Positions 14,937 to 62,903 of a stretch of DNA of 64,000 bases are shown one piece after another. Source of the stretch: Escherichia phage KKP 3715. The translations under genes were made by a program, and so were the position numbers. Position 1 is the first letter of the stretch, and each line of letters opens with the position of its first letter. The DNA is taken from sequence record OR067834.1; one strand, 5' to 3'. The notes under the pieces were generated by a model. The model was given only the letters and a program-made list of their open reading frames with translations, was not told where the DNA came from and made no database searches.

Positions 14937-16157
14937 ATGACTACGGAAGCTGCAACCACAGCTTCCGACATTCTCGCAATGTCGGATGATGAGATTCTGA
15001 ATATGGAAGCCCCAGCAATTATCGCTGAGGAAGATACTTCCACTCAGAACAACCCAGAAACCAACGGCGTACAGACTCCTGATGAAGAAGTTGACACCCC
15101 TGCTGTTGAAGACCTACCAACCGAAGAAACCTCCCCTGAAGCCAAACCAGATGAAGAAGATTCAGCAAATCCTTTAACTTCTGATAAAGTTGATGATAAA
15201 GTTGTTGACACAGAAGTTGATAGTAACGGCGAGCCGATTACTAAAGCTGAACCTTCTACTACTGAACCAGGCCAGGAACAGAAAGAAGAAGGCAAACAGT
15301 CTGAAGGTCTGCCTGCTGACTTCAACTATAAGGAAAGTTACGAAAAGTTGATGGCTCCTTTTAAAGCTAACGGCAAAGTGATTACTCCCCGTTCACCGGA
15401 GGAGGCCATTAGCCTGATGCAGATGGGTGCTAACTATACTCGTAAGATGCAAGAACTAAAGCCTTACCGTAAGGTAATGCTGATGTTACAGAACAACGGT
15501 TTAATGGATGAGGATAAACTTTCTTTCCTGATTGACCTGGATAAAAAGAATCCTGAAGCCATTAAGAAGTTGCTCAAAGACTCTGGTACAGATCCCCTGG
15601 ACTTTAATCCAGATGAGGAAATTAACTACCAGGGTGGCAATCACCGTGTTACCGACACCGAAGCAGATTTTGCAACCGAAATTGACGACTTAAAGTCTAC
15701 TCAAGAAGGACAAGCTACATTAGGTGTTATCGGCTCGACATGGGATGCTGCCAGTAAAGATGCTCTTTACCAGAATCGTGGCCTACTCCAGACTATTCAT
15801 GAACAACGTGAGAATGGTATTTATGACACCATTGCAAACGAAGTGAACCGTCTTCAGATGTTAGGCCAGATTCCGGTAGGTACTCCGTTTATTCAGGCTT
15901 ATAACCACGTCGGTAACCTCCTTGCACAGCAAGGGGCATTTAACCGAGTGACTAAGCCTGAACCGGTACAAGCAGTTAAACCAGTAGTTCAGCCGGTAGT
16001 GCGTGTAGCACAACCTAAGCAGACTCTGGCTAACAGTGAGCAAGCTAAAGCAGCTTCCCTTAATCGGGCTGCTACACGTAAAGCTACACCTATTGTAAAC
16101 CCACTCGCTATGAGTGATGAAGATTTCGCTAAACTCCCAGTACCGGGTAGTCTTTAA
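14937..16157 (+). CDS. putative scaffolding protein
   Basis: 406 aa; acidic low-complexity N-terminus; located immediately upstream of the major capsid gene. Confidence 0.5.
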   Translation: MTTEAATTASDILAMSDDEILNMEAPAIIAEEDTSTQNNPETNGVQTPDEEVDTPAVEDLPTEETSPEAKPDEEDSANPLTSDKVDDKVVDTEVDSNGEPITKAEPSTTEPGQEQKEEGKQSEGLPADFNYKESYEKLMAPFKANGKVITPRSPEEAISLMQMGANYTRKMQELKPYRKVMLMLQNNGLMDEDKLSFLIDLDKKNPEAIKKLLKDSGTDPLDFNPDEEINYQGGNHRVTDTEADFATEIDDLKSTQEGQATLGVIGSTWDAASKDALYQNRGLLQTIHEQRENGIYDTIANEVNRLQMLGQIPVGTPFIQAYNHVGNLLAQQGAFNRVTKPEPVQAVKPVVQPVVRVAQPKQTLANSEQAKAASLNRAATRKATPIVNPLAMSDEDFAKLPVPGSL

Positions 16158-30100: not shown

Positions 30101-33100
30101 ATATGACCTGCGTGAGGGTGCTACCGATGACCTGTTACGTGCAGGTGCTGAACAGATTGAACGTAACCTACGTAACATTGCTCTGGGTGTAGATATTCGT
30201 CACAAAGTGATGAACCAGGTACAGACCACTGTTGACCAGATGGCTGCTGTAGGTGCTCCTTATGTGAACAACGGTAAAATCTCTCTGGAAGGTCTGACTG
30301 TAGACCAGCAAGTAGCTAAGCTAAACGAACTATTTGATGCTGAATTAAATAAGCGTCGTGATGCAGTACGTGCTGCTAAAGCAGAACCTGTTAAAGAAGT
30401 GCCAGCTATGGAACAAGTTGGTCGTGTACTGAAGTCTGGTGTACGTCTGTTGTCTAATACTGCTATCACTAAGCTGGCTAAAGAGATGACTTCTGAACAG
30501 CAAGCAGTATTGAAAGAAGTACAGAAATCCCTTGCTGCTAAAGACTACAAGGTTGTTTACGGTACTCCTGCTCAACTGGATGCTTATGCTATTGAGAAGA
30601 ACATTACTCGCCCAGCACCGGAAGATATTGAAGCTGCCGAAGCTGGTAATGCATATGGCTGGACTAACTTTGATGATAAAACCATCTACTTAGTTACCCC
30701 TTCCTTAGAGACTCTGGTTCATGAATTAGTACATGCTTCTACTTTTGAATCTGTACTGGCTCACTATGAGGGTACTCCTAACGAAGCAGTCCAGAACATC
30801 GAAGATCTTATGAACCAGTTCCGTACTCTGGATGTTAAGAACGAATCCCCGGCAGTACGTGAAGCATATGCTGATGCACTCAATACCATTAACGGTCACT
30901 TGTCTAATGGCTTTATTGAACCTGCAATGGCTAAAGCTGCTGCACTGAATGAGTACATGGCATGGGGCTTAACCAATCGTGAACTGATTGGTAAGCAGAA
31001 GAAGACCACTGCACTGAAAACTATGGTTCAGTCTGTGTATGAAGCAATCAAGCGTCTGGTATTTGGTCGCAAGAAAGCACCTGCTAATGCAGATGATATG
31101 TTCTCCGGATTACTGTTTAACTCTTCAGTAGTTATGCGTGGGCAGGCTCCTACTGCTGCTGTATCCAAAGACACTACCTTGTTCCATAACAAAGCATATG
31201 GAGATAATACCCGTCTTGAAGAATTGGGGCAGACCTTTGATAAGCTGATTACTAACTACATTGGTTCTGAACCAGTGCAGCAAGTAATTCGTAAAGGTAA
31301 GTTCTCTGATGCAGTAGTGAATGCAACTAAAGTAACTCGTGATGTTCAGGCTTATGGCTTTACCATGAATATGCAGGAACAGCGATTGTTCACTAATATC
31401 GTTGCTGCTTTGGCTACTGAAGCTGCTATTAGTCCGGCTGCTCTTTCTCGTGCACAGGAATACTATGCACACGTTACTAAGAACCTGACCGTTGAATCAT
31501 TCATGGCTGACCCGGATAGTACTAACCCTGCTGACCGTTACTATGCTCAACAGAAGTTCGATACCATCATGGGTGCTAACAATATTGAGTTTGATGCACA
31601 AGGTCGTTCTTCCTTACTGCCTACCTTTGTTGGTCTGGCAATGGTAAGTGAAGAGGTGCGTAACGTACTGGCTAACATTCCTGTTATGAAAGCAGATAAG
31701 AAATCTGGTAATACCGTTGATGCAATGCTGACTAACATTGGTACTGCTGCAATGTCTAGCCTGAACGCTCGTGTAGCAGGTGATACCAAAGCTACTAACG
31801 TACAGGAAGGTATGGATGCACTGGCTCAGACAATCATGCAGACAAGTCTTAATGCACAGTCATTCTATGATTCCGTTGCTACTCCTAGTGGTAATGCTAT
31901 TGACCGTGCTAACCAGTATCTGGTGGATTCTATTGATGCACTGTCTACTCGTGCTTTAGAAAGTGCTCGTGAAGTTGCAGCTAATACCAAGAACCCATTG
32001 GTTAAGGGTGCTGCTCATGCTGCACAATTGGTGGCTGCTATTGCTACTGAGAAGAACGGTGCAATCGTGGCAGAAGGTGTTATGGCTGCAATGAACCAGG
32101 GCAAGGTATGGCAACCTTTCCACGACTTGGTTAATGACTTAACTGGTCGTACTAAGAGCAATGCTTCTGTATACGATTTGATTAAAGCAGTTCGTGCACA
32201 GGTACAGGCTGACCGTCAGCAGTTCCGTGAACATCTGCCTACCACTATCGCATCTAAGTTCAGCCGTAAGCTGACTAACGATGAGTGGAAAGCAATGCAC
32301 ACCGGTATGGGTAAAACTGACTTAGCTGTTCTGCGTGACACTATGTCTCTGGCTGAAATCCGTGACCTGCTGTCTGACCAGAAGATTGTTGACCGTGAAG
32401 TGAATAAGCTGGAAGCAGATTTGCAGAAACAAGCTGGTCGTAACTGGCCTCTGATTAACCGTAAATCTAAGCAACTGGCTCAGTACATGATTAACGGTAC
32501 GGTCGGTAATAACCTGCTGCGTAATGCTACTGCAATCTCCCGTATGCTGGGTGAACGTCAGGCTGCTCGCTCTACTGTAGATGTAGCTCAACTGGATAAA
32601 CTGATTACCCTGTATGCACTGGAAGCAATGAACAAGTCCGACCGTGAGACGTTATCTTCACTGGCTCAGACAGAAGTTGAGGGAATGGACTTTGCTACTT
32701 CTTACCTGGTTGGACAACGTAAAGATGAAATGGCTAAAGCCAAGTCTGATATGCGTGCAACCCTGAACCAGTACAAAGGGCATATTCCTAGTGAGACTAA
32801 ACAGGGTGTTAATCTGATTGTTGCTGAAGATAGCCAGTTTGCTGATTTGATTGAGAAGTCCTATGTACGTCTGGGTACTTATCAAGGTAGCTCTGCTAAC
32901 CGTGGTCCGGCACGTAGCTATTACTTTGCACCAGTACAGGCACAGGCTCCTTTCTCACAGGGTATCCTACAGAACGTTCGTAATACTGCTGGTGGTGTAG
33001 ACCTCGGCACAGGCTTTACGATGGGTTCCATGGTAGCTGGTCGTATTACTGACAAGCCTTCCGTAGACCGTATCACTAAAGCACTGGCTCGTGGCGAACG

Positions 33101-34523
33101 TGGTAATGAACCACTGCTGCCTGTATATGACGATAAAGGTAATGTAGTTGCCTATGAGCAATCCATTGACCCTAATATGCTGAAGCACATTGAGGGTGAG
33201 AACCATCTTGCCCGTGCAATCGGCGTATGGCGTGGTCGTCAGGTGGAAGAAGCTAAGGCTCAGCGTTTCAACGATATGCTGATTGAGAACCTGCATAGCA
33301 TGTATGAGAACGACATTAAGATGTCTGCCTCTAATAAGTCCCAGTACGTTAACCTTCTTGGTTCTAAATTGGACCCAGTAACTGCTGATGCTCTTAAGCT
33401 AATGAATAGTGAAACCCGTCAGAAAGCAGAGAGTTTGTTCGGTGAGGGTGAACTGTGGGTACGTCGTGACATGCTTAATGATGCACTTGGTTATCGTGCA
33501 GCTTCTGTAGGTGATGCCTGGTCTGGTAATTCTCGTTGGTCTCCGGAAACATTGGATACCTTTAAGAAAGCTATGCTGGGTGTATTTGGTAACCGTGCCT
33601 ATAAGTACACAATGGGTGGTGAGAACCTGGTTCAAAACTTAGTTAAAGAAGCTAAGACTCTGATTGTAGTTAAGTCAGTAGTCGTACCTGCTGTTAACTT
33701 CTTAGCTAACCTTTACCAGATGGTTGCCCGTGGTGTACCGGTTAAGAACATTGCTAAGAGCATTCCACAGAAGACTGCTGAGATTAACCAGTACCTTAAA
33801 TCACGTCTGCGTCAGGTAGATGCAGAAGCAGAATTACGTGCAGCTACTAACCCGAACCAGATTCGTAAACTTAAGGCTGAGATTCAGTCCATTACTGATA
33901 GCCATAAGCGTATGAGTATCTGGCCTCTGTTGGAAGCCGGTGAGTTCTCTTCAATTGCAGACGCTGGTATTGGTCGTGATGACATCCTGATTACTGAAGG
34001 CAAACTCCACGAATACATGGATAAGCTGGCAGATAAGTTACCTAAGTCTGTGCGTACTGCCGGTCGTTATGCACTTATTACTAAGGATACTGCTCTGTTC
34101 CAGGGTATCCAGAAGACGGTTGAGTACTCTGACTTTATCGCTAAAGCAATCATCTATGATGAACTGACTCAGCGTAAAGGTAAGACTCGTGAAGAAGCAC
34201 TTGGGCGTGTAACGGAAGAGTTCGTTAACTATGACCGTTTACCTGGTCGCTTCCGTGGGTACATGGAAAGTGTTGGTTTAATGTGGTTCTACAACTTTAA
34301 GATTCGTTCAGCTAAGGTTGCTGTGTCCATGATTCGTAATAACCCTGTACATGCAACAATGGCGATGCTGGCTCCAACTCCTACCATGTTTGGTAACGTT
34401 GGCTTACCTATTCAGGACAACATCTTTAGTATTGCTGCTAAGGGTAGTCTGGATTACTCATGGGGCTTTGGTCAGGGTCTTCGTGCTCACAACCTGAACC
34501 CTTGGATGAACCTGGTAAACTAA
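24153..34523 (+). CDS. virion-encapsidated RNA polymerase (giant, N4 vRNAP-like)
   Basis: 3456-aa ORF, the hallmark of N4-like phages. Track start is TTG at 24153; ATG at 24171 with AGGAAA RBS is the more likely start. Confidence 0.9.
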   Translation: MNRKHAMSTFDRLAGFADSITNAKQVDVSTATSQKQAAQGQSPFQLTPENAYNLQTGRVGNLGIGAFEPDSLQADFTQASPLEIINKYGNEQGLQILNSRANAADVVRQDLSKQRTNAEAFGDTLSGVGLGVANTLGGIAALGTGLVNDNAGATIASGMDWLNEGVHNLQSDALNATRKVVQNQNQISAQKNQKLYEEDIKNGESDLVASLSRIGRDAFDSVANTLDNGMAASDGLSEGVGSLFTGGPLIRGVSALGKVMVGGDKAVKGITLAAGLGSRPAQVALSAGRVAAPAIAIGGMEAGGAYQQTASEIMKMSHQELASKSPVYQQHIADGLSPDEARRQTASETGIIAAGLTAPVAAATGPLVSRFELNPLKVGSLAGAGSNMLRETVEEGIQSGFGQYAQNRAIKENVDASRDVLKGVGEQAGLGALYGFGSAGVAQAPGATVKAAGAAAGPALRTTLAGASLVGKTLAKAASPLTNILVQRGEEVAKRNEQASPVADATVNAAAQEAAAQAEQAQATVQEAVDAMDISPEEKAAATQYAADLTQAMKFDPVELEQANPTIREAVSGSTNRVEAIQKMADLVNTAEDPNVQMEAAIQMYDNIMSMDSFINRDPGALANLEQGSPAAAIVDQFSGLMANVQNTPKVLRAFRAIHSMIQEQAEAGKLKATEEANQAQANNIAMAADVSPEVLDADSVNMVLKHASEGKITLGNRQRAALQSAAALLQGAREFDAKAEELGLRPQDIVSKQIKTDESRSNEGQYSALQHAKRIRSAYNSGNFDLASAYLSDFMKFAQHMQNKVGALNEHLISGNADKNKSVHYQALSPSREWVRSRTGLGVNPYDTKSVKFAQQVGLEAKTVADIANALATAYPELNVSHVKVTSLDSRLNKPAAQVVKEFRQGGLDATQSQQTNEPVNQVDESPAPVQEDTTTVQPKAKPVVENKTAPTKETSPKTEEVSTTKSETVEATPTNEDTIQEVAKTKTEMETVFPVYNNEKTPNQFLKAFTLPEEPKSRTVGSESPLADIKQALSSVARFEAFTQKENNVLTGDVIKRYQDLMDFGETLKTTLSERLAKFLANKNVGKRFAEGTEANRWVGGKLLNIVERDGDTFKFNDQLLETAVLAGLQWRLTATQNAAIKDMKDVAAITGVEASLLPEGILAEFENAQTLVEATNSLAQKIESYWGLNRNPNAPLGYTKGIPMAMATEILSSLIEMGEVKESMLDVSEIDPDSNKTVGLYTIEKLDDNDAINKFPTAIEEAVLLEPEEKMYFDDDIPSVAQTQLRNPAVKNTPEQKAALKAEQATEFRVHMPMVNFYEALGRDNILELMGAGTLNPDLLNKNTAKSLEGKNLSVSMAYDSLFGVINQIREQENGLDTPIHYGYNMTRVGRMQMLGKNNPQSSKLVREAILPTFSTIDLSNENSQAFSDFQLGLAQALGIKVHKMSREAMSENLTKALEGNLKPAVDMMVEFDKAGYLPTDAVDILKTSLGDNKSFVALMALMEYARYLNSDDRANFTTPLYVEADGVTNGPINAMVLMTGGKFTPDWIKNTAKGGLFFGRAGKTMNEHCSIDDNVDLYEASTNGLQQALNELRTTYRNNVPVMSQMNHLQKLMDLFIKDFNLNEDGTLDLKRGIAKNPLTITIYGSGARGIAGKMVSAITDTIYERFSDVLQARAADPSISPAMAMFGKEAASEADAQAMLDTFLTSMEALTGNVPVMRKGELSIQQVDGALTGKLDPQKFTVSGNALKNLQENMLHLFVEPMRTGIRNTVGEGLMHSTENLQKATQIQSLVLQDMFQQAVQAKLAEKEKDPTWKKGDFLTQKELNEIQESLSPLAPMIETGSQTFYIAGSENTDVANQVLATNLDDRMRVPMSIYAPSQAGVAGIPFMTIGTGDGMMMQTLSTMKGAPKNTLKIFDGMNIGISDITDASRKANEAVYTSWQGNPIKNVYDSYAKFMKNVDFSKLSDETKQAIAKSALEYDLREGATDDLLRAGAEQIERNLRNIALGVDIRHKVMNQVQTTVDQMAAVGAPYVNNGKISLEGLTVDQQVAKLNELFDAELNKRRDAVRAAKAEPVKEVPAMEQVGRVLKSGVRLLSNTAITKLAKEMTSEQQAVLKEVQKSLAAKDYKVVYGTPAQLDAYAIEKNITRPAPEDIEAAEAGNAYGWTNFDDKTIYLVTPSLETLVHELVHASTFESVLAHYEGTPNEAVQNIEDLMNQFRTLDVKNESPAVREAYADALNTINGHLSNGFIEPAMAKAAALNEYMAWGLTNRELIGKQKKTTALKTMVQSVYEAIKRLVFGRKKAPANADDMFSGLLFNSSVVMRGQAPTAAVSKDTTLFHNKAYGDNTRLEELGQTFDKLITNYIGSEPVQQVIRKGKFSDAVVNATKVTRDVQAYGFTMNMQEQRLFTNIVAALATEAAISPAALSRAQEYYAHVTKNLTVESFMADPDSTNPADRYYAQQKFDTIMGANNIEFDAQGRSSLLPTFVGLAMVSEEVRNVLANIPVMKADKKSGNTVDAMLTNIGTAAMSSLNARVAGDTKATNVQEGMDALAQTIMQTSLNAQSFYDSVATPSGNAIDRANQYLVDSIDALSTRALESAREVAANTKNPLVKGAAHAAQLVAAIATEKNGAIVAEGVMAAMNQGKVWQPFHDLVNDLTGRTKSNASVYDLIKAVRAQVQADRQQFREHLPTTIASKFSRKLTNDEWKAMHTGMGKTDLAVLRDTMSLAEIRDLLSDQKIVDREVNKLEADLQKQAGRNWPLINRKSKQLAQYMINGTVGNNLLRNATAISRMLGERQAARSTVDVAQLDKLITLYALEAMNKSDRETLSSLAQTEVEGMDFATSYLVGQRKDEMAKAKSDMRATLNQYKGHIPSETKQGVNLIVAEDSQFADLIEKSYVRLGTYQGSSANRGPARSYYFAPVQAQAPFSQGILQNVRNTAGGVDLGTGFTMGSMVAGRITDKPSVDRITKALARGERGNEPLLPVYDDKGNVVAYEQSIDPNMLKHIEGENHLARAIGVWRGRQVEEAKAQRFNDMLIENLHSMYENDIKMSASNKSQYVNLLGSKLDPVTADALKLMNSETRQKAESLFGEGELWVRRDMLNDALGYRAASVGDAWSGNSRWSPETLDTFKKAMLGVFGNRAYKYTMGGENLVQNLVKEAKTLIVVKSVVVPAVNFLANLYQMVARGVPVKNIAKSIPQKTAEINQYLKSRLRQVDAEAELRAATNPNQIRKLKAEIQSITDSHKRMSIWPLLEAGEFSSIADAGIGRDDILITEGKLHEYMDKLADKLPKSVRTAGRYALITKDTALFQGIQKTVEYSDFIAKAIIYDELTQRKGKTREEALGRVTEEFVNYDRLPGRFRGYMESVGLMWFYNFKIRSAKVAVSMIRNNPVHATMAMLAPTPTMFGNVGLPIQDNIFSIAAKGSLDYSWGFGQGLRAHNLNPWMNLVN

Positions 34524-34532
34524 AATAAAAAA

Positions 34533-34550
34533 GCCCCTCTAATGAGGGGC
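34533..34550. terminator. bidirectional intrinsic terminator (GCCCCTC-TAAT-GAGGGGC) between convergent genes
   Basis: A-tract upstream and T-rich tract downstream on the plus strand give U-tracts in both orientations. Confidence 0.7.
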
Positions 34551-34557
34551 TTCTATT

Positions 34558-35590: not shown

Positions 35591-35826
35591 TAGTGACTTT
35601 AACGCAGTCAACGAGGCAGGCCGTCAAACTACTATCACTACAGGGTTAAGCGACCATGGGTTGATAGCCCGATAGTAGTAAGACGTAGGTTTGGATTTCT
35701 AAGTGTTACCTTCACTAGCGAAATTCCCGTCGAGGGGAATAACAATACATTAGCAGCCACTGGACTGTCTTACCAGTGTTGTCTTTAGAGTGCTGTGCAA
35801 TCAGGACTATGTTACTGCTGAATGGG

Positions 35827-35900
35827 TGTCCACTACTGGATTTGAACCAGTGACCTTCTGATTATTAGTCAGTTGCTTTCCCAGTCTAAGCTAAGTGGAC
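35827..35900 (-). tRNA. tRNA gene (cloverleaf parsed by eye; anticodon loop reads CUAAUAA, i.e. anticodon AAU, Ile-like; identity uncertain)
   Basis: Minus strand: acceptor GTCCACT/AGTGGAC, D-arm GCTT-AGACTGGGA-AAGC, anticodon stem ACTGA/TCAGA, T-arm ACTGG-TTCAAAT-CCAGT, discriminator A; 74 nt. Confidence 0.6.
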
Positions 35901-35909
35901 ATAATATGA

Positions 35910-35982
35910 TTACCCGGGCAGGAATCGAACCTGCGTCCTAGTTAGTTTACTAGTGGGGCTTTACCACTAAGCCTACCGGGTA
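35910..35982 (-). tRNA. tRNA gene with atypical anticodon arm (4-bp stem with 8-nt loop, or 5-bp stem with 6-nt loop); identity undetermined
   Basis: Minus strand: perfect acceptor TACCCGG/CCGGGTA, D-arm GGCT-TAGTGGTAA-AGCC, T-arm GCAGG-TTCGATT-CCTGC; anticodon region CUAG-UAAACUAA-CUAG. Confidence 0.55.
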
Positions 35983-37126: not shown

Positions 37127-37802
37127 TGGTCCCCCGTTTCTAATACATGGACGGGAGAACTCCACGATCGTTTGTTAATCAGGACGACTCACTCCTGACT
37201 GAGGTTACGCTGTTAGGCGACCATCAGATACGCTTCTTCGTTTGCATTTATGTTATTGGTTCGTTTCTAAAAAACCGCATAATCGCTACGAAAACTATCA
37301 ATGAGTACACTCTGTGGATTCATTTTACAGGGACTTCATTTCATTCCCTGACCTCAATCAAATGTACTCATTGATAGCCCATAATAGGAGGGAGGGGACG
37401 AATCCTCCCTTTATACCCTATGTTGCATGTAAGATCTAACAGTTCGGTGTTGTAGACGGATGGGCTTATGCTTACCGGCATTAAACTCCCGCCCCCTTAT
37501 TGGGCTGGGTTAATTAATATACTCAACATTGAGCAGTTAGTTTGATAAGGGATCTGAAGCCTTATCCCAAAGATACTAACCTTTGGGATATAGCCTAAGA
37601 TTCAGAAATGGCCCCTATAGGAGAGGCCATTGATTAACCCGAATGTTGCTTTACATTTTCTGAGGTAACCAATTCTTAAAATAGTCTGTCTGACGGATGG
37701 GGGGCCACCCCTAGCGTCAGTGCCATACGGCAAAGATTAAGTTAAGAAAGGTTATGATAGGAGTTCCTATCTCAAAGGATTCTGACAGAACCCTTCACGA
37801 TA

Positions 37803-40053: not shown

Positions 40054-40806
40054 TTAAGCGTAGTATTCAGCCAGATGGTCTAAGAGTTTCTGGGCATCAT
40101 TGTCGATATAAGTCTGTGACTTATCAAACATACCCATCGGTGAGCGAAGACGTTTACCAACAGACTTCTTGGTTGGACGAGTCTGGAATACGTGCTTATA
40201 GCCTAAGTCACGTTCTTCTTCCGTAATATCAAGCATCTTGTTGCCATACTTCTCCAGTTCCTTAATGTCTACACGTTCTGCGTAAACCACTGTAGAGAAG
40301 TAAGCCTCAAGGCCATTGTTCTTCAGGGAACCCTTAACTGGGATGAATGTTTTCATCACACCAGCAGCTTCGTCGAGTTCATCTTTGGCATGAGCAGTAA
40401 TGATTACTGGTTTACCAAACTTAACGACTTTCTGTTGCAACAGTATTTTAAAGAACTGTGCAAAGTCTCCCCAGGCTTTCTGGGTATTAGCAGAAGGCAA
40501 TACATACTGGGATTCCAGCATGTCCATCATGAAGGTAGCAGAGTCGATAATGATGCCATCAACATCGTCTGCCATTTCACCACCAGGAGATGCAACATCA
40601 AATGCTTCCCAAATCTGATATGGGTCTTCAATGTTGTAGGTGTTGAACTTATTACGGAAAGGTAGACGCTTGCCTGCTTCTGTATTCAGATACAGCCATC
40701 GTTCCTGGTTCCGGATATTGCGCAGTGATGCTGATTTACCACTCGCTGAAAATCCTGCAATCAGGATTAGCTGAGTGTTCATATCGTTGGAGATTTCTTC
40801 GGACAT
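40054..40806 (-). CDS. P-loop ATPase (RecA-core, Sak4-like) of the replication module
   Basis: 250 aa; Walker A LILIAGFSASGKSAS near the N-terminus. Confidence 0.6.
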   Translation of the reverse strand: MSEEISNDMNTQLILIAGFSASGKSASLRNIRNQERWLYLNTEAGKRLPFRNKFNTYNIEDPYQIWEAFDVASPGGEMADDVDGIIIDSATFMMDMLESQYVLPSANTQKAWGDFAQFFKILLQQKVVKFGKPVIITAHAKDELDEAAGVMKTFIPVKGSLKNNGLEAYFSTVVYAERVDIKELEKYGNKMLDITEEERDLGYKHVFQTRPTKKSVGKRLRSPMGMFDKSQTYIDNDAQKLLDHLAEYYA

Positions 40807-40863
40807 TATTTTTTCCTCGTTTAGTTTAGGAGTCCTTCAAACCAAAGAAAGACTCCTGTTTTC

Positions 40864-43074
40864 TTACTTGCCAGCGAAGCGTTTAGCCACGGTGACCATT
40901 ACGGTTGAATTCAATTCATCATCTGGTAATGGATTAGCCAGTTTCTTATTGAATGAGTAGACGGCTTGCTGTACTTGAGCAAAGTCCCAACCACTGTCTA
41001 CTAATGCCAGTGCGTACTTAATCATTTGATTATTACGATTACCGGAGGCAATACGACCAGCGAACCAACGCTCCAGATTGTCTAACGACTGTACTTCCTT
41101 CATCTGGTTCTGGAACTGCTCGTTCTTACTGGTACGAGGAATAAAGTCACGTACATCCAACAGATTCGCATCAAGGTTGTAATGATAGGAACCAGTCTCA
41201 CAGGACATCCACTTCTTGGCTCGTTGGTTAGCAGACTCATCCGTTTCGAATGGTAGCCAAGCCATAACGTTATTCATGAACTCTTTGTATTCCTCTGTGT
41301 CGAGGTGTAACTCATAGTTCATTGGAATAATCAGACGGAAGCGGTTCTCTTCGTCGGTATGACGCTTAGTGGTATAGGTCATGAACTTATATTCCTTCAT
41401 TAGTTCATGGCACGTATGCAGAGGTACTCCACCGTCACAGTCAATAACAATCATGTTAAATCCTGGAATAACGTTCTCTTCAGAACGATGTCCATTCTTC
41501 ATGTGATGGTTTACCCAGTGCATACCGGGAGCTTGGGTTAATACATGTAGCTGGTCAAACGGTACACGTTCACCAACATAGTCATAAGCAAAGCTATCAC
41601 TATATGCCACTATCATCTCATTGGTGTCAGTCTCTTTCAGAGTCTCACCACGAAAGAACTCAATGCCCTCATTGAAGGTTTTCTTAATAATGATGTGCTG
41701 TTTGTAACCCCATGCTGTAGCAAGAGTCATCATCTCATTACGAGCTGCATTACCACTCTTATAGAACGGTAATGACTCCAGCAAGTCAGCATGAGTAACT
41801 TCTTTGCCCACAGAGGCAATGTACTTAGCCAGTTTCACATAGGCTTTCTCGCGATTGAGAATACCCTGGAATGCTGCCCCGGATTCTTCTACGAGCAGGA
41901 TTGCTTGTTTAAGGTGAGACATCTCAATGAATGAACTCTGATCAACAAACGCCAGTGCACCTGCCAGCTTAAGAGCCTTGAAGTAACGGTGAGAGATTTC
42001 AGCCTTACGAATTTCTTCATGGTCAGCCATAGCTTCTGCTTGTTTCTCACAATCAATTTTGTAAGTAATCAGAGCAATACCCACTGCATCTTCCACAATC
42101 ATCTTAAAGCCAAACAGGTTTGGGTCAGCCAGACTATGGAAGTGGTTAGCCCACTTACCAAGAGACTGAACGTTATCCTGCTTAATAAGGTTACGGTAGA
42201 TTTCTTCCGGGGTCATCGTTGCATGTGCTCGCTTGTCTAAGTGCCCAATGGCAAACAGACAACGACGTGCATACCCTGTATCAAGGAAGTCATAGAACTG
42301 GTCTTCAGTCTGCCCACCATCCAGCAACTTACTCGGAGTACCGAACAGCAGCAGGTTAGCAGGAGTCTTACCATCCAGTTCTTCACCACGAATACTTTCA
42401 GCAGTGTTCTTGGTTAACTTCTGTTTTACTTTCCCCTGGTCATATAACTCAAGGAACAGGTTAAGCACTTCAACGTTGGCAATGAGGTTGGAACCAATCT
42501 CATCAATCTGTAAGTTAATAGCACCACAACCAGCCATTAGCAGCTTGTGACGTAGCTGTTTTACAGCAGGTGCTGTACCAGAGTCGAATGTGAATGGGAA
42601 TGCCCCAGCACGTTTATACTCTGCTTCAACTTTGTCGAACTCATCATTCTGGTCCGTACCCTGACGAGCAGCCCGTTCGTTAGCAATCTTCCATAAACGG
42701 TCATTTGCAATAACGGGCATGGTGTCTTCCATAAAACGCTTACGGAAGCCAGTCATAAACCCGTCTTCAATGATATTTACCGAGTGACCTTTACCGAAAC
42801 CAGATGTAGCCAACGCCATAGCGTAGATGTTTACCGGCAGGTCACCACGGTCTTTAGTTACGATGGTTGCACCCATGCAGGATGCCATTTTAGCCAAGAA
42901 GTAGGCTACTTCGACACGGAAAAATCCCCGGTCGTTATTCTGGGTTTTATTGCAGAGCACATCTACGATTTCTTCAATCGCTGGATGGTGCACTACTCCG
43001 GTAAGGTCAATACTCATGATGGAAAATATCTCTCTCTTTGTTTGCAAATAGATGCGACAGGGCAGTAAAGACAT
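40864..43074 (-). CDS. DNA primase (archaeo-eukaryotic primase-like domain with C-terminal PriCT-like region)
   Basis: 736 aa; hhhDxD-type motif FNMIVIDCDGG followed by conserved His; likely true start at an internal Met (near 43017), which would remove the overlap with the upstream nuclease gene. Confidence 0.7.
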   Translation of the reverse strand: MSLLPCRIYLQTKREIFSIMSIDLTGVVHHPAIEEIVDVLCNKTQNNDRGFFRVEVAYFLAKMASCMGATIVTKDRGDLPVNIYAMALATSGFGKGHSVNIIEDGFMTGFRKRFMEDTMPVIANDRLWKIANERAARQGTDQNDEFDKVEAEYKRAGAFPFTFDSGTAPAVKQLRHKLLMAGCGAINLQIDEIGSNLIANVEVLNLFLELYDQGKVKQKLTKNTAESIRGEELDGKTPANLLLFGTPSKLLDGGQTEDQFYDFLDTGYARRCLFAIGHLDKRAHATMTPEEIYRNLIKQDNVQSLGKWANHFHSLADPNLFGFKMIVEDAVGIALITYKIDCEKQAEAMADHEEIRKAEISHRYFKALKLAGALAFVDQSSFIEMSHLKQAILLVEESGAAFQGILNREKAYVKLAKYIASVGKEVTHADLLESLPFYKSGNAARNEMMTLATAWGYKQHIIIKKTFNEGIEFFRGETLKETDTNEMIVAYSDSFAYDYVGERVPFDQLHVLTQAPGMHWVNHHMKNGHRSEENVIPGFNMIVIDCDGGVPLHTCHELMKEYKFMTYTTKRHTDEENRFRLIIPMNYELHLDTEEYKEFMNNVMAWLPFETDESANQRAKKWMSCETGSYHYNLDANLLDVRDFIPRTSKNEQFQNQMKEVQSLDNLERWFAGRIASGNRNNQMIKYALALVDSGWDFAQVQQAVYSFNKKLANPLPDDELNSTVMVTVAKRFAGK

Positions 43075-47919: not shown

Positions 47920-49230
47920 TTAGAAAGTTAGACCACCGTACTTACTGGCAAGATTGCCATAGAACACCACACGCTTACGGGCACGAGACACAGCGACGTA
48001 AAGCAGACGGGCAACCATATCAGGTTGGCGACAGCTTGAGAGGTCATTTGCATCAATAAAGATTGTGTCGTAAGTAGAGCCTTGTGATTTATGAACAGTA
48101 CATGCATGAGTAGCACGCAGGTCTGGAATGGTTTCTTTAAGACGGAAGTAAGGTTCCCAATTCTTCTCTTTACCCAACCACTTAACCAAACGGTTGAAGT
48201 AGTCCGGGTCGGTAGGAATTGGAACTTCACTAACAATACCACCATAACCAAGGTCTAGCGTACTATCACGGACTTCCAGTTCCAGGTCACCTGTAACTTT
48301 AATCATGCGAGTACTACTATCCTGGTCGATAAGTTTTACGTCCTGCTCGATAGACAGACGGTCATCCACACCTAAGCGAACGGCTGAGTTAGAAACAAGC
48401 TGTTCACCTATGGAGTATTCACCTACGTAGCCGTTAGCTTCACGAATGTAGTTATTATAATTAATAACTTGGTCATTTGTGTAAGCGACAATACGACTGT
48501 TGGTGGGTTGAGTGAAATGACTGAGAACCAGTTTCTCCATTTCTTCCTCCTGCACCCAGTCAATAATGCCCGGGATACATTTAATAGGCAGGAAGCCTGT
48601 CTTACCTTCCACCGTATCACGCAATTGCTGGTGCAATGCTTTGAGTTCCGGTGTATCAGTACGCATCTGTTCAGTCAGATAGTGTGTTGGGATATTACCT
48701 GCATACACTGGAGACTTACTCTCTTTAACAGGCAGAAGCTGACAAGCATCACCTACGAATACCAGTTTGCACTGGTGAGTACCTTCACGAGCATACTTAA
48801 GTAACTGACGGTCAATCATGGATGCTTCATCTACGAAGATAATTTTGTTCTTCTTAATAGTGAATGATTTAGAAGGTACGACATTAGCCTCACCAGTTTT
48901 AAAGTCATTCTTAACAATCAGTCCCTGGAAGGAATGATAGGTAGACGTTGGACGTCCTGTAGCTTGAGCCAGAACTTCAGCAGCTTTGTTCGTGGTCGCT
49001 GTCATGACAACTTCGTTATACAGAGGCTTGGTTCCCATCAGAGAACAGGTTTCCATATATGCAGGCATAGTGTCATCAATCAGGTGCGACATCAGGAATG
49101 TCTTACCAGTTCCCCCAGGTCCACTAATATTGAATTCTGAGGCATTAGGGTCGAGCAGGAAGTCGAAGAACTCCTTCGCAACCGCTTCTTGCCCCTGGTT
49201 CAATGGGGCTTTGGTAGGTTTGGAAAACAT
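47920..49230 (-). CDS. SF1 DNA helicase (Dda/RecD-like)
   Basis: 436 aa; Walker A ISGPGGTGKTFL; Walker B-like KIIFVDEASMI; size and position match the N4-like helicase. Confidence 0.8.
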   Translation of the reverse strand: MFSKPTKAPLNQGQEAVAKEFFDFLLDPNASEFNISGPGGTGKTFLMSHLIDDTMPAYMETCSLMGTKPLYNEVVMTATTNKAAEVLAQATGRPTSTYHSFQGLIVKNDFKTGEANVVPSKSFTIKKNKIIFVDEASMIDRQLLKYAREGTHQCKLVFVGDACQLLPVKESKSPVYAGNIPTHYLTEQMRTDTPELKALHQQLRDTVEGKTGFLPIKCIPGIIDWVQEEEMEKLVLSHFTQPTNSRIVAYTNDQVINYNNYIREANGYVGEYSIGEQLVSNSAVRLGVDDRLSIEQDVKLIDQDSSTRMIKVTGDLELEVRDSTLDLGYGGIVSEVPIPTDPDYFNRLVKWLGKEKNWEPYFRLKETIPDLRATHACTVHKSQGSTYDTIFIDANDLSSCRQPDMVARLLYVAVSRARKRVVFYGNLASKYGGLTF

Positions 49231-49239
49231 TTAAATCTC

Positions 49240-49265
49240 CAGTAAAAAACCCTCCGTAGAGGGTT
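49240..49265 (-). terminator. intrinsic terminator (AACCCTC-CGTA-GAGGGTT, then UUUUUUACU on the minus strand)
   Basis: Read from sequence between 49264..49722 and the helicase start. Confidence 0.6.
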
Positions 49266-49722
49266 AGATGTAAGGGGTTAAATCTGGGGGAGTGTAGTCT
49301 TTCCCCTTCATGACTTTCTTGTTCTCGTTGAAGATAGGTTCCCCATCTTCGAACTTGGAATAGTTTGAGCGATTGACTTCAGCCAATGCTCCGGGGACAT
49401 TCATCCCAAGGAAAGTACCGACGCCAGTTGCTGTAACAATCTGGTCAGCAATGCTGTCCAAAAGTCCGATACGGTCTTTCGCAACAATACCACCGTTTTG
49501 TTTAATACGGTCTGCTACGTAGTTAATAGCATCATGTAAGGAAGCAAGTATTTTAGCGTCATCTTTATTGACACTACTAATTGTCTCCAGCATTTCAGCT
49601 ACTTCTTCCAGATGGCATCCAACTTGTGTACTGATGTTTTTACTCGTCGGATTCGGTACGGCTTTTAGAAACCATTGCCGTGTGCTTTCCAGCGTACAAA
49701 CGGATGAACTTGTCATGCTCAC
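49264..49722 (-). CDS. hypothetical protein
   Basis: 152-aa ORF; its first ~27 codons overlap the upstream HTH gene, so the true start may be an internal Met. Confidence 0.45.
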   Translation of the reverse strand: MSMTSSSVCTLESTRQWFLKAVPNPTSKNISTQVGCHLEEVAEMLETISSVNKDDAKILASLHDAINYVADRIKQNGGIVAKDRIGLLDSIADQIVTATGVGTFLGMNVPGALAEVNRSNYSKFEDGEPIFNENKKVMKGKDYTPPDLTPYI

Positions 49723-50065
49723 TCTCTTGGTTAAGGTGGCGATTATTATATGCCTCCAGAATCAAGTCCCTTACGTATGAACGAATCTCATAAGCAGGAC
49801 CAACTTGCTCTGATAGCCAATCTGCCACATGGGTTGGTAATGGACGGAGTACATTCTCCATGAACGTCCGACGTGTATCGGCTGGTTCAATGTTTAAAGA
49901 ACGCAATCGCAAAGTAACCGTAGTGGGGTGAACCCCCAACGTCTTAGCGATAGTTGCGAGGGACAGACCAACAGCATTCATACGAATGATGTCTTCATCA
50001 GTTGCTTTGCGATTAACTCTGTAAACTTTACTCATAGTACATTTCCTCTTCAAATTTACCCTCAC
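49640..50065 (-). CDS. helix-turn-helix DNA-binding protein (putative transcriptional regulator)
   Basis: HTH segment NAVGLSLATIAKTLGVHPTTVTLRL; track start is GTG at 50065 but ATG at 50035 (MSKVYRV) is more likely. Confidence 0.55.
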   Translation of the reverse strand: MRVNLKRKCTMSKVYRVNRKATDEDIIRMNAVGLSLATIAKTLGVHPTTVTLRLRSLNIEPADTRRTFMENVLRPLPTHVADWLSEQVGPAYEIRSYVRDLILEAYNNRHLNQESEHDKFIRLYAGKHTAMVSKSRTESDE

Positions 50066-50084
50066 TTTATTATAAGTGAGGGTA
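50057..50084. promoter_or_regulatory. perfect 11-bp inverted repeat TACCCTCACTT-N6-AAGTGAGGGTA upstream of the HTH gene; candidate operator or terminator hairpin
   Basis: Read from sequence; the spacer reads ATAATA on the minus strand; lies between the rIIB-like stop and the HTH gene ATG. Confidence 0.45.
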
Positions 50085-50097
50085 TTTGAACAGGCTA

Positions 50098-52146
50098 TTA
50101 CTTAACGGCTTTGACCAGTTTGGTAGCTAACTTAGCTTCTTCTTCAGTCAGGCCCATTGCAGTGAATGACTTCTTAGCATGACGCTTATAGTCTTGCAGA
50201 GCATGACCTTTCTGATAGTCGGAGTAGGACGTATCATTCAGGATGCTACGCAGGTTATCGGCGTGTGTTCCATTAATTGGTTTAGGGGCAGCTTTAGTAA
50301 CCTTAGCTTTCTTCACTGGTTTTGGTTTGCCGATAGGTTTAGCTGTGTAAGTTGTACGTACATCAGCAATCTTAGCCACCACATCGGAACCAACACCTAA
50401 AGCAGCCCATGGCTTACGAGCCTTACCTCGCATTTCCACAAGTAAGTCAGCAGCAGCTAATTTATCTTCCGGAGTAGTAGCGTTAAGGAACTCTTTAATT
50501 AGTTCCTGGATTTGTTCTTTCACGGTAGGAGCCTTATTAACAATAGGTTTAAGGTCAGTAGCCTTCACTGGTTCAGCAGCTACAGCTTCATTCAGTGACT
50601 CTTCCATATTCAGTGCTTCTTTATTAGCAACTGTACGGAACTGTTCTACAGAACCAGACGAGAGATTAGTGTATTTGAGGTTAGTACCACGATGCCCACC
50701 AACCATAACAAGTGTGGTAGGTGAACTATGGTTCCCAACGATGGCATCATTAAGTAATTTCTTACCTACTTCTGTCTTAGACAGATAGATGCCATTGTTA
50801 ACGTTGCAACGTTCCTCTTCTGGTAGTTCAGCAATAATGTGATACGCAGCTACACGCATCTTATTAGTGTTGTACTCAGGAACAGCAAATACATCTTCTG
50901 GTGCTACTTTACCAAGGATAGTTACGTTACCACCGAAGGTACGGATGTAACTCATGGATGCTACGTGCAGACCATTAGAGCAGTCCTGACGACGGTCAGG
51001 GTCTACCAGGTCTTCTCGTACCTGTACTTTACAGCCTACCCACTGACGGATGTTGCCTGAGTGACAGTCAACAAATACACGTTTACCATTTTCTTCACCT
51101 CTGAACTTAAGGCGTTTCAGGAACAGGATAGAACCATCATCAGCGATAGGCAGTTCAGCAGTTTCCATGAACTTCATCAGGTCTTCCACTGAGTGCAGAC
51201 GGTCTTTAATAACCGGAGCCAGACGCTCAAGGAACTTGGTAAAGCCCTTATAGTCTTTTAGCTGGGCAGACTGACGTAGGTGACGTTGTAGGTTCTCAAT
51301 TCCAGGGATAACCCCATTGTTGGTAACAGCAACAACCACTTCATCCTCCTTCACATCAGTGTGGAAGTTAGCATCATCGGTACTGATAGCACCTAATGCA
51401 GCCAGCTTCTCTGAAGCAGCAGCCAGCTTATCCTGGTTCGTAGTTTTAACCACTTCCACATAAGGCAGTGGTGTTACCCCACTCCCACGGTTGGTAAATA
51501 CAACATGTACACCCTTGATGTTCTGAGCTTGTTTAGTAAACTCCCCCATTTCATCATCAGATACTGCACGAATTGCAATAGGCCATTCCTGTCTAAGTAC
51601 GATGTCGGTGAGGTCAGTACTCATCCATAGTACGTCGTTAATAAAACGAACCAGTGCAGGATGGTTATGGTCTTTATCCCAGCCAGTAACCCACATCAGA
51701 TTGTCACGTTTGTCGTAGTAACCATCTGCTACTGTTACCTCTGGTTCATTAGCCTGAACAGCCAAGAAGGTATCCATAGCTTTGGATACTAATGTCTTAG
51801 TAGGATTACCCAGCTTAATATCTGAAACAATACGGACTGGTGAAACACCTGTACCATCCTCGAAGAACTCTTTAAGTTTAGCCTTAGCTACCTTGAAGAA
51901 ACGGACGAATCCGTTGGTGTTCTTCTCTGCTTCTAGGTATTCAGTACGCAGTTCTACTTCTGGTGCAATGTTTACTTCTATTTGGTCTTGGGTAGTACCA
52001 AGACCTTTGGTCTGTGCTTCAGATACAATACGAGCAACCCGTGGGTCGCTCTGAGGATATACAACCGTGGAGCCATCAGGCTTCCACAGTGTGAGGTTTC
52101 GACTGTCAACTGCCAGTGCGATGATAGAAATCAATTCGATTTTCAT
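50098..52146 (-). CDS. rIIB: rIIB-like protein
   Basis: 682 aa; segment DCHSGN...CSNGLHVASMSYIRTFGG...KMRVAAY matches what I recall of T4 rIIB; immediately downstream of the rIIA-like gene. Confidence 0.65.
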   Translation of the reverse strand: MKIELISIIALAVDSRNLTLWKPDGSTVVYPQSDPRVARIVSEAQTKGLGTTQDQIEVNIAPEVELRTEYLEAEKNTNGFVRFFKVAKAKLKEFFEDGTGVSPVRIVSDIKLGNPTKTLVSKAMDTFLAVQANEPEVTVADGYYDKRDNLMWVTGWDKDHNHPALVRFINDVLWMSTDLTDIVLRQEWPIAIRAVSDDEMGEFTKQAQNIKGVHVVFTNRGSGVTPLPYVEVVKTTNQDKLAAASEKLAALGAISTDDANFHTDVKEDEVVVAVTNNGVIPGIENLQRHLRQSAQLKDYKGFTKFLERLAPVIKDRLHSVEDLMKFMETAELPIADDGSILFLKRLKFRGEENGKRVFVDCHSGNIRQWVGCKVQVREDLVDPDRRQDCSNGLHVASMSYIRTFGGNVTILGKVAPEDVFAVPEYNTNKMRVAAYHIIAELPEEERCNVNNGIYLSKTEVGKKLLNDAIVGNHSSPTTLVMVGGHRGTNLKYTNLSSGSVEQFRTVANKEALNMEESLNEAVAAEPVKATDLKPIVNKAPTVKEQIQELIKEFLNATTPEDKLAAADLLVEMRGKARKPWAALGVGSDVVAKIADVRTTYTAKPIGKPKPVKKAKVTKAAPKPINGTHADNLRSILNDTSYSDYQKGHALQDYKRHAKKSFTAMGLTEEEAKLATKLVKAVK

Positions 52147-55410: not shown

Positions 55411-55434
55411 AAAAAGACCTCCCGGAGGAGGTCT
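55405..55434 (-). terminator. intrinsic terminator (AGACCTCC-CGGA-GGAGGTCT, then U-tract on the minus strand)
   Basis: Read from sequence. Confidence 0.6.
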
Positions 55435-55439
55435 TAGGT

Positions 55440-57060: not shown

Positions 57061-57548
57061 TAGTATTTACTACCTCTTCTATACCAAGGGTAATGGTGGG
57101 TAGTGCTCTTGCCTTTGAACACATCCTTGGTATAAGGATTCTTTTGTATTTGAGCCAGGTAAAGATGCATGTCGTCATAGCAAGGACTAAGCCAGAACTT
57201 ATCTATGATACGATCTACCTTAGCTTTCAGATGAGGTTCAGGAGGGATGTATGGGAAAACATTAAATGATCTACTAGTCCATCCTTTCTGAATAGCAGCT
57301 TGCATTGCTGCGTAAACATCGGGACCAATTCCATTTTCTTCTACTTGGTCATGTATAGTTTTACCTAAAGTAAGCATTGCAGTTTGTTCCAGTTTACTTA
57401 AGTCCAGTCCATATAAGATAGACTTACCATTTTGTCTGTTTGACATAAGAGTACCTGTAATTAAAAAAGCCCACTGGTTAGGTGGGCTTGGATTAGGAGA
57501 TGGATAAGCAATGAGCTGGAAGTAACTTCCACAAGCATCACTATACAA
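57060..57548 (-). CDS. hypothetical protein
   Basis: 162-aa ORF; a terminator inside the annotated N-terminus suggests the true start is an internal Met near 57446. Confidence 0.5.
   Translation of the reverse strand: MYSDACGSYFQLIAYPSPNPSPPNQWAFLITGTLMSNRQNGKSILYGLDLSKLEQTAMLTLGKTIHDQVEENGIGPDVYAAMQAAIQKGWTSRSFNVFPYIPPEPHLKAKVDRIIDKFWLSPCYDDMHLYLAQIQKNPYTKDVFKGKSTTHHYPWYRRGSKY
57461..57488 (-). terminator. intrinsic terminator (AGCCCAC...GTGGGCT, then UUUUUAA on the minus strand)
   Basis: Read from sequence. Confidence 0.6.
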
Positions 57549-61351: not shown

Positions 61352-61569
61352 TTCTTCTCCGGTACGAACTGCATTACACAGTTTTGATTACGAGGGATAT
61401 TCAATTCACATTCATGCTTGAGGGTTTGGGTTACAGAGTTTGGAGTAGAACCAAAGTAGGTATTAGAAATAGCTACAATTCCTGCACCAAAGAACCCTCC
61501 TAACACGAACGAGAAGAATGCAATCTCTTTATACATTTCCTGGCTCCAGATGTGAAAAACCCCAGTCAA
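61348..61569 (-). CDS. small membrane protein
   Basis: 73-aa ORF with one hydrophobic helix. Confidence 0.4.
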   Translation of the reverse strand: MTGVFHIWSQEMYKEIAFFSFVLGGFFGAGIVAISNTYFGSTPNSVTQTLKHECELNIPRNQNCVMQFVPEKK

Positions 61570-61597
61570 TGCTGGGGTTTATCTATCAGTTTATACT

Positions 61598-61858: not shown

Positions 61859-61912
61859 AGTTACCTTCTTAGTTAGTAGATTGATACATATTCATATAAC
61901 AGACAAACAATA

Positions 61913-61945
61913 GTCAAAAAAAGACCCCCCTTCAATAGGGAGGTC
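61913..61945 (-). terminator. intrinsic terminator (GACCCCCC/GGGAGGTC stem, then U8 tract on the minus strand)
   Basis: Read from sequence; preceded by a second hairpin GGGGTT-TAT-AACCCC at 61966-61980 directly after the stop of the upstream gene. Confidence 0.65.
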
Positions 61946-62829: not shown

Positions 62830-62903
62830 GCATGTATCCTCTTGAGTAAATATGCCTAATCATTATGAAGGCTGATAAAAAAGAAAGCCACCCTCAAGGG
62901 TGG

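Follow-up and report, generated by a model that had tools for sequence, protein, structure and literature searches.

A conserved intercistronic stem-loop at the rIIB-gp35 junction of Escherichia phage KKP 3715 and its N4-like relatives

Hairpins located between the cistrons of phage messages are known as mRNA-stabilising elements or processing sites from the intercistronic RNase III sites of T7 (R0.3, R1.1 and others) and from the lambda N leader. The middle genes of phage N4 are transcribed by a heterodimeric, T7-like phage polymerase (RNAPII), which acts on single-stranded templates with SSB as cofactor, and the late genes by the host polymerase from the opposite strand (PMC4496689). The signals of this middle polymerase are poorly defined: its terminators are uncharacterised, and of its promoters only a short, minimal AT-rich stretch from -7 to +2 has been described (PMC4496689). 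The early promoters of N4, used by its vRNAP, combine stems of 5-7 bp with loops of 3 nt and specific conserved bases, and are located at the left genome end (PMC4496689). In the N4-like Pseudomonas phage LUZ7, four experimentally mapped middle promoters are GC-rich hairpins, with stems of 6 bp or more and loops of 3-4 nt, positioned about 15 bp upstream of a G transcription start, whereas N4, a member of the same subfamily as the phage studied here, uses sequence motifs instead of hairpins; weak terminators with stage-dependent read-through are widespread in LUZ7 (PMC9163698). Against this background, a junction hairpin with covariation across the family represents a well-defined candidate signal, and one that helps to delimit the transcription units of G7C-like therapeutic coliphages.

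The element described here is located between the rIIB-like gene and gp35 of Escherichia phage KKP 3715, within a stretch of 64,000 nucleotides (OR067834.1) that was analysed as a whole and is referred to as the window. The structure exists, is compensatorily conserved and single-copy, is independent of the HTH sequence of gp35, and has a sub-canonical tail. It is a family-wide conserved element and a known, fairly ordinary kind of signal, which had earlier appeared as an unexplained line in two GenBank records: phage G7C (HQ259105) has an unlabelled 'stem_loop' (20939-20962) in the same spacer, corresponding to the same hairpin, and the RefSeq entry of phage SP5M (NC_070869) places a 'terminator' (21052-21098) there. 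In contrast to the present analysis, both are bare or purely predictive feature lines that come without conservation analysis or function. The G7C record contains three more 'stem_loop' features, after gp16.1, gp17 and gp27, which are kept separate from three 'rho-independent terminator' features elsewhere. No regulatory features are given in the N4 GenBank record, and in PhAPEC5 and PhAPEC7 the ARNold 'terminator' belongs to another hairpin, located downstream of gp36 (49248-49265 of the window).

Setting, sequence and rarity of the repeat

The window derives from a G7C-like, N4-like phage of the genus Gamaleyavirus (Schitoviridae). A 2-kb region is 85-93% identical to RudolfBernhard_Bas96, G7C, ST4, PhAPEC5 and others, and the 351 bp around the hairpin are 95% identical to G7C. 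All large ORFs around the hairpin are located on the - strand. The upstream cistron (50098..52146, - strand; 682 aa) is a rIIB-like gene and homologue of N4 gp34, as judged from phrog_2886 ('RIIB lysis inhibitor', E=1e-214) and the gp34 annotation of G7C; its TAA stop occupies 50098-50100. The downstream cistron is gp35 (49640..50035, - strand; 131 aa), assigned by the gp35 annotation of G7C and N4, with its ATG at 50035-50033. Further downstream follow gp36 (MazG-like pyrophosphohydrolase), a Dda-like helicase and DNA polymerase; the rIIB/gp35 block consists of middle genes. The first-pass annotation had labelled gp35 an HTH regulator. Its N-terminus is indeed HTH-like, with weak resemblance to the HTH of small terminases, but the label derives solely from sub-threshold Pfam matches (HTH_38, 21.1 bits at a cut-off of 27, and HTH_23), and the corresponding PHROG (phrog_6377) is of unknown function.

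The spacer between the rIIB-like TAA and the gp35 ATG comprises 62 nt (50036-50097) and holds the repeat, the claimed location of which between this stop and the ATG at 50035 is confirmed by the ORF coordinates. On the - strand, the sequence runs from TAA (50100-50098) via TAG CCT G TTCAAA, TACCCTCACTT, ATAATA, AAGTGAGGGTA and AA TTTGAA G AGG AAATGTACT to ATG (50035); on the + strand, the order is TACCCTCACTT (50057-50067), TATTAT and AAGTGAGGGTA (50074-50084). The left (5') arm of the inner helix, TACCCTCACTT (50074..50084, - strand), and the right (3') arm, AAGTGAGGGTA (50057..50067, - strand), are perfect complements and show compensatory pairs among relatives. They enclose the loop ATAATA (50068..50073, - strand). 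The description of an 11-bp perfect repeat with a 6-nt interval at 50057-50084 is exact, the arms being complementary throughout, and the reading of the interval as ATAATA on the coding strand likewise proved correct. The hairpin is situated right after the rIIB-like stop, with about 20 nt separating it from the start codon of gp35.

A census of hairpins revealed no longer perfect hairpin anywhere in the 64-kb window. Perfect stems of at least 9 bp yielded 10 raw hits, representing 8 distinct hairpins, compared to 2.4 raw hits in first-order Markov simulations. The same type of null, with loops of 3-9 nt, predicts 0.22 perfect 11-bp hairpins per 64 kb, or about 2e-4 per 62-nt spacer. A DNA-level landmark such as an origin or skew switch was rejected as identity of the element, since the composition shows no inflection near 50 kb. 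Likewise, no known RNA family matched: among 4227 Rfam models, none reached the gathering threshold, and the best (mir-743, 15.9 bits vs 67 required, E=2.4) scored at chance level.

Conservation and covariation among relatives

Relatives were collected by gp35 homology and comprise 52 loci, spanning 98% to about 45% identity. Most of them, over this entire range, possess a strong hairpin at the rIIB-gp35 junction. The 70 nt upstream of gp35 fold with a mean of -26.6 kcal/mol, compared to -17.3 kcal/mol for control windows of the same loci (49 unique loci), and the spacer fold outdoes at least 95% of the controls in 32 of these 49. For the window itself, the 81-nt coding-strand RNA reaches -30.8 kcal/mol, while shuffled sequences average -11.4 +/- 2.7 kcal/mol (z = -7.25; 0/200 shuffles equal); the spacer fold amounts to -27.8 kcal/mol and the 11-bp stem alone to -16.5 kcal/mol.

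The stem sequences are unrelated between lineages: TACCCTCACTT in the window is replaced by GTAGCTCCAGT in N4 and by GATACCTCTAGT in many distant phages, and further unrelated stems include ATATCCCGCAGGTC, TCACCCCAAACTAA, AAGAACCCCCCACCT and others. Among relatives, stems measure 7-18 bp and loops, the sequence of which is not conserved, 3-11 nt; the distance between hairpin and ATG varies rather little (16-25 nt). An alignment of 14 sequences from the group of Escherichia and Klebsiella phages has 91% of cells paired, compared to 36-52% with slid partners, and a covariation score of 0.18, compared to at most 0.05. Five pairs of the inner helix are changed on both sides (alignment A1, columns 29-56, 30-55, 32-53, 33-52 and 36-49), and one pair alternates between A-U, G-U and G-C. 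A covariance-model alignment of 29 distinct sequences, which was fitted to, and is biased in favour of, the structure, yielded 92% paired cells vs 43-54% and 39 extra pair types vs 11-22 with slid partners. On this comparative evidence, the hairpin is a selected structure and not a chance palindrome.

Two observations bear on the nucleic acid in which the structure forms. The sense RNA folds more stably than the antisense RNA in 42 of 50 spacers (p=1e-6), and the cells of the 29-sequence alignment that deviate from Watson-Crick pairing comprise 33 G-U but only 11 A-C; an unbiased hairpin finder gave the same tendency as a trend only (22 vs 12, p=0.12). The fold bias of the sense strand and the excess of G-U over A-C favour, but do not prove, structure at the mRNA level, and we infer that the repeat would act as RNA.

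Natural insertions separate the hairpin from either neighbouring gene. It is always located directly 3' of a stop codon, which is that of rIIB in the window, in loci L013-15 and in LUZ7. In RudolfBernhard and IME11, an inserted 55-aa ORF precedes the hairpin, the TAG of which corresponds to the TAG following the rIIB TAA in the window, and another inserted ORF does so in locus L050. Insertions are found on the gp35 side as well: loci L013-15 carry an HNH_3 endonuclease gene (PF13392, E=1e-18) between hairpin and gp35. There, the strong hairpin stays behind the rIIB stop with flanks that no longer pair (as read from the sequence), and gp35 retains the tail and the Shine-Dalgarno (SD) sequence behind a weak 8-bp hairpin. 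LUZ7 has a GC hairpin of 7 bp with a 4-nt loop after the rIIB stop (GGGGGAG-GCAA-CUCCCCC, then ACUCUUUCAGGAGG), which is followed in a differing gene order by ORF48, a gene not homologous to gp35. The gene after the hairpin thus varies between gp35, an HNH gene and unrelated ORFs.

Promoter and operator interpretations

The first-pass annotation had considered the repeat as a possible promoter element, which finds no support. The apex does contain a perfect -10 hexamer, TATAAT (50074-50069, - strand), formed by the loop and a flanking T, from which a host sigma-70 promoter could be proposed. However, an acceptable -35 element is absent at 16-18 bp spacing, and a scan of 49000-51000 detected 0 promoter-like sites. 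The hexamer is also variable, reading GTAATA in close relatives and TGAAATAT in N4, with unrelated loops elsewhere, and the host polymerase serves the late genes of N4 on the other strand (PMC4496689). The sigma-70 reading was rejected and must be regarded as extremely improbable.

A repeated promoter or terminator sequence family was rejected as well, since the half-site, the combined right-arm/tail motif and CTAGAGGYATYTTT of the distant relatives are all single-copy. The right-arm/tail motif has no further copies in the window and occurs once per locus in the relatives; half-sites with up to two mismatches gave 22 matches in the window compared to 22.0 expected, so that the further copies anticipated for an operator half-site did not materialise.

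A hairpin-type promoter for the phage middle RNAPII would require the repeat to extrude, or to fold in locally single-stranded DNA, and to start just downstream a separate transcript covering gp35-gp36 and the replication genes. In common with the hairpin promoters of N4-like phages, the locus has an inverted repeat that lies upstream of a middle gene in a genome of this type and precedes an AT-rich segment. The mapped LUZ7 middle promoters provide a precedent (PMC9163698), and LUZ7 also carries a post-rIIB hairpin, with a 7-bp GC stem and a 4-nt loop. The AT-rich minimal promoter of N4 RNAPII (PMC4496689) has a counterpart in the AT-rich tail of the window, the perfect repeat with its all-A/T loop would be expected to favour cruciform extrusion, and the fairly uniform spacing between hairpin and ATG points the same way. 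The geometry is nevertheless a different one. The 11-bp stem with its 6-nt loop, like the range of stems and loops in the relatives, fits neither the early promoters of N4 nor the middle promoters of LUZ7, that is, a short stem and a 3-4 nt loop with a start 11-15 nt from the loop centre; an A is located at +15 from the hairpin centre and the nearest G at +20, in contrast to the G start of LUZ7 (PMC9163698). A conserved loop is missing. Many middle promoters would be expected, yet each locus has one copy of the element and the window contains no second one. N4 itself, from the same subfamily as KKP 3715, relies on sequence motifs (PMC9163698), and loci L013-15 have no such hairpin directly before gp35. 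The predominance of G-T over A-C on the sense strand furthermore disfavours a hairpin in the template strand. Taken together, such a promoter appears quite improbable; should it be true, the LUZ7 mechanism would extend to the coliphage branch, where middle promoters are poorly defined.

Autoregulation by a gp35 HTH dimer bound to a palindromic operator had been suggested by the perfect palindrome immediately upstream of a gene for an HTH-like protein. For this interpretation, half-sites at fixed spacing and co-variation of the palindrome with the recognition helix would be expected, and neither was observed. Phages with entirely unrelated stems have an almost invariant HTH segment (GLSLATIAKTLGVHPTTVTLRL), and the distance between the half-sites, set by the loop, ranges between 3 and 11 nt. 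No extra half-sites occur in the window, G-T wobble positions break the dyad symmetry of the duplex DNA, an HNH gene separates hairpin and gp35 in loci L013-15, and the LUZ7 hairpin is not followed by a gp35 homologue at all. The uniqueness of the half-site in the window and the near-invariance of the HTH, while the stem changes completely, led to rejection of the operator, which as far as sequence analysis goes is refuted and seems very improbable. The main practical result is accordingly a negative one: the repeat should not be annotated as operator of an HTH protein.

Tail, extended helix and proposed role

The repeat forms a stable GC-rich stem-loop on the transcribed strand, as is typical of intrinsic terminators. 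The tail is less so. A U-run directly 3' of the stem (about five or more U in 8 nt) is absent in the window and present in 16 of the 52 orthologues, which score as canonical intrinsic terminators, typically with ...GGTATC TTTTATGGAG. The T-poor tail of the window, TAAATTTG (also written TAAATTTGAAG or UAAAUUUGAAG), contains 4/8 T with a proximal UAAA, while relatives have TATCTTTG or TATCTTTT. The tail of the N4/G7C branch is TATCTTTGAAGAGG; that of the sub-lineage comprising the window, G7C, PhAPEC5 and RudolfBernhard, TAAATTTGAAGAGG, is the weakest of all, even though the stem is still compensated. Since its tail is T-poor, the rIIB-gp35 hairpin obtains a low terminator d-score of -38 to -44, compared to +5 to +54 for the canonical terminators of the window, and ranks near the 95th percentile among random windows of the same strand; the formula was used with modern energy parameters, and the scores convey relative ranking only. 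The corresponding nT values are 0.9-1.4 and 3.8-5.3, and a terminator scan of the region listed the hairpin after gp36 but not the one at the rIIB-gp35 junction.

Among the functions initially considered for the repeat, a terminator hairpin lacking a good U-tract comes closest to the evidence, in view of the canonical orthologues, the 'terminator' of SP5M and the weakest tail being found here. The locus shares with intrinsic terminators, including the T7-type class I, a GC-rich stem-loop located on the transcribed strand immediately 3' of a stop codon, orthologues with a full U-run (16/52), canonical siblings in the same gene block, and a precedent for stage-dependent read-through in LUZ7 (PMC9163698). 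It differs by an eroded U-tract, a 6-nt loop made up of A and U only, and a tail paired with an upstream A-rich segment. From the 16 canonical orthologues, the ancestral or commonest state looks like an intrinsic terminator abutting the ribosome-binding site of the next gene. In the N4/G7C branch, the retention of the stem without a good U-run hints that classical termination may not be what selection maintains.

The tail takes part in a longer helix than the one noted in the first-pass annotation. On the 5' side, CCT-G-TTCAAA (50085..50094, - strand), the CCT of which represents an anti-Shine-Dalgarno sequence, is predicted to pair with the 3' tail (50045..50056, - strand), composed of an AA bulge (50056-55), TTTGAA (50054-49) and G-AGG; the SD sequence of gp35, GAGG, occupies 50048-45. 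Specifically, TTCAAA (50090-50085) pairs with TTTGAA (50054-49) and CCT (50094-92) with AGG (50047-45), giving a full helix of about 20 bp (3+6+11) with a 2-nt 3' bulge and one G-G (1x1) mismatch, which appears in both MFE and centroid folds. The outer 5' strand is nearly invariant in the group of Escherichia and Klebsiella phages, and distant relatives retain most of the outer pairs, which show little covariation. In many of the latter (e.g. L049, L050, L022, L024), the helix begins adjacent to the stop codon and ends adjacent to the start codon.

Pairing of the flanks (TTCAAA/TTTGAA, CCT/AGG) renders the gp35 SD about 75% paired in the window; shuffling the 5' flanks lowers this to about 49%, with P(SD unpaired) rising from 0.25 to 0.51, and 5% of the shuffles match the real flank. 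In 48 relatives, the mean P(SD unpaired) is 0.29 vs 0.36 (p=0.01), a weak effect from non-independent sequences. Most of the occlusion also arises in shuffles of matched composition, and in the 14- and 29-sequence alignments covariation is almost absent from the three pairs that cover the SD. Sequestration of the SD would accordingly be a weakly indicated, secondary feature.

These findings bear on a further explanation, in which the irregular helix of about 20 bp would hide the gp35 SD as an RNA processing or translational switch. A ribosome that terminates at the rIIB stop, just 3 nt away from where the helix begins, might melt it open (translational coupling). Alternatively, a double-strand-specific endonuclease such as RNase III could cut it, as at T7 intercistronic sites, so that the rIIB mRNA would keep a protective 3' hairpin and the gp35 leader would become free. 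The geometry of an RNase III site is present, with about two turns of irregular dsRNA (3+6+11 bp), the 1x1 mismatch and the 2-nt 3' bulge in an intercistronic position. Occurrence of the extended helix in both fold types, the SD pairing of the window and its relatives, the long helices of the distant relatives and the conservation of a stem without U-run in the N4/G7C branch are all consistent with a switch. The predicted anatomy also resembles the RNase III sites of T7 and the lambda N leader, which share the irregular helix of about 20 bp, the 3' bulge, the location between cistrons and, for T7, a transcript made by a T7-like polymerase. As at T7-type processing sites, the upper stem could stay as protective 3' hairpin while the lower stem holds the downstream ribosome-binding site; the lower stem in the window differs in being without covariation. 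Against a switch argue the weakness of the occlusion signal, which composition shuffles mostly match, the near-lack of covariation in the SD-covering pairs, and loci L013-15, where the hairpin precedes the HNH gene with unpaired flanks and gp35 keeps only a weak hairpin. A link between N4-like phages and RNase III was not found in the literature searched. Overall, a switch of this kind is considered unlikely, though not implausible.

The preferred reading is that of a transcript-boundary element, which the terminator anatomy in relatives, together with the eroded U-run and extended helix here, makes the most likely role. The hairpin would be an RNA stem-loop between two cistrons of the polycistronic message for the middle genes of a G7C-like phage, and this phage's version of a hairpin that N4-like phages retain throughout at the rIIB-gp35 junction. 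In the N4/G7C branch, the U-run would have eroded, most strongly in the window, with the flanks pairing instead to yield the helix of about 20 bp that reaches the gp35 SD. The stem-loop may then serve as an attenuating terminator, as 3'-end protection of the rIIA-rIIB message, or as both, and transcripts reading through would supply gp35-gp36, the translation of which might be damped by the partly occluded ribosome-binding site. Termination, attenuation or transcript stabilisation is what we infer from the sequence comparison; the chances that the hairpin ends the rIIA-rIIB unit as a leaky terminator and/or 3'-end protector, secondarily damping gp35 translation, are judged to be about even. 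That it has ceased to be a terminator in the N4/G7C branch and is kept for its structure alone, either as an RNAPII hairpin promoter or for gp35-rIIB coupling operated by ribosomes or RNase III, is deemed rather improbable. Transcript-end maps for phages of the N4/G7C group were not found in the literature searched.

The boundary role fits the surroundings of the hairpin. Nearly every post-stop spacer of the - strand middle block has a GC-rich hairpin. Six of these are followed by a T-run, as is a bidirectional hairpin at 34531-34552, and all seven are canonical; with at least six canonical terminators of hairpin and T-run in the gene block, this signal type is in use there. The next hairpin downstream of the rIIB-gp35 junction is the canonical intrinsic terminator after gp36 (49248..49265, - strand; AACCCTC-TACG-GAGGGTT, then TTTT; d=+20), which probably ends the gp35-gp36 segment. 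Elsewhere in the window, a hairpin at 40807-40863 likewise combines a strong stem with the absence of a T-run.

Conservation and insertions at the rIIB/gp35 junction

The right arm of the hairpin in the spacer between the rIIB-like gene and gp35, together with its tail (ACTAGAGGTATCTTTTA), is almost identical in many distant relatives (loci L021-L055, at approximately positions 1460-1490) and is retained in L023, L049 and L052 despite a decayed left arm. This conservation of ACTAGAGGTATCTTTTA at the sequence level exceeds what structure alone needs.

The rIIB/gp35 junction is also an indel hotspot, the sites being located at 50095-50100 in the window, at 753-920 in L058, at 970-1446 in L013, and in L008 and L050. 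Phages of the RudolfBernhard/IME11 type carry a 55-aa ORF (Bas96_0051) placed exactly between TAA and the next TAG, for which no match was detected in PHROG. An HNH_3 endonuclease gene separates the hairpin from gp35 in L013-15, and a different ORF is inserted at the junction in L050.

On either side of this spacer, two further features of the coding sequences were observed. The frames of gp35 and the MazG-like gp36 overlap by ~77-83 nt in different frames (49640-49722, minus strand), an overlap likewise annotated in G7C, PhAPEC5 and N4. The C-terminus of the rIIB-like protein (50101-50600, minus strand; L016-L056; L060) harbours the repeated motif K-K-x-A-K-K-x-W-x-x-L-G-(L/F), which is kept from the window phage to LUZ7 (L060), while the remainder of the rIIB-like tail is highly variable.

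Other hairpins and terminators

A second strong stem devoid of a T-run, AGGAGTCTTTC-N8-GAAGGACTCCT (40807-40863, minus strand; dG ~ -15 to -17 kcal/mol), is flanked by a primase-like ORF (40864-43074) and the following ORF (40054-40806), and shares with the rIIB/gp35 hairpin the pattern of a strong stem without U-tail. Hairpins with perfect stems include a 10-bp hairpin, TATCCCAAAG-N8-CTTTGGGATA (37563-37590), within a gene-poor stretch (~36.4-38.2 kb), and two abutting 9-bp hairpins (14944-14986) at the very start of the plus-strand ORF 14937-16157.

Canonical terminators, composed of a hairpin plus T-run 3' of a stop codon, were identified on the minus strand at 49248-49265, 55414-55435, ~57470-57490, 61557-61580, ~61900-61925 and ~62880-62900. 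Their position within the middle-gene block means that transcription has to leak through or bypass them. Between the vRNAP gene (24171-34523, plus strand) and the minus-strand block lies a terminator that is bidirectional (34531-34552).

tRNA genes

Two neighbouring tRNA genes are located on the minus strand (35823-35901 and 35910-35982), one of which codes for tRNA-Ile (anticodon AAT); the other scored 41.7 bits in Rfam and was assigned no anticodon by ARAGORN.
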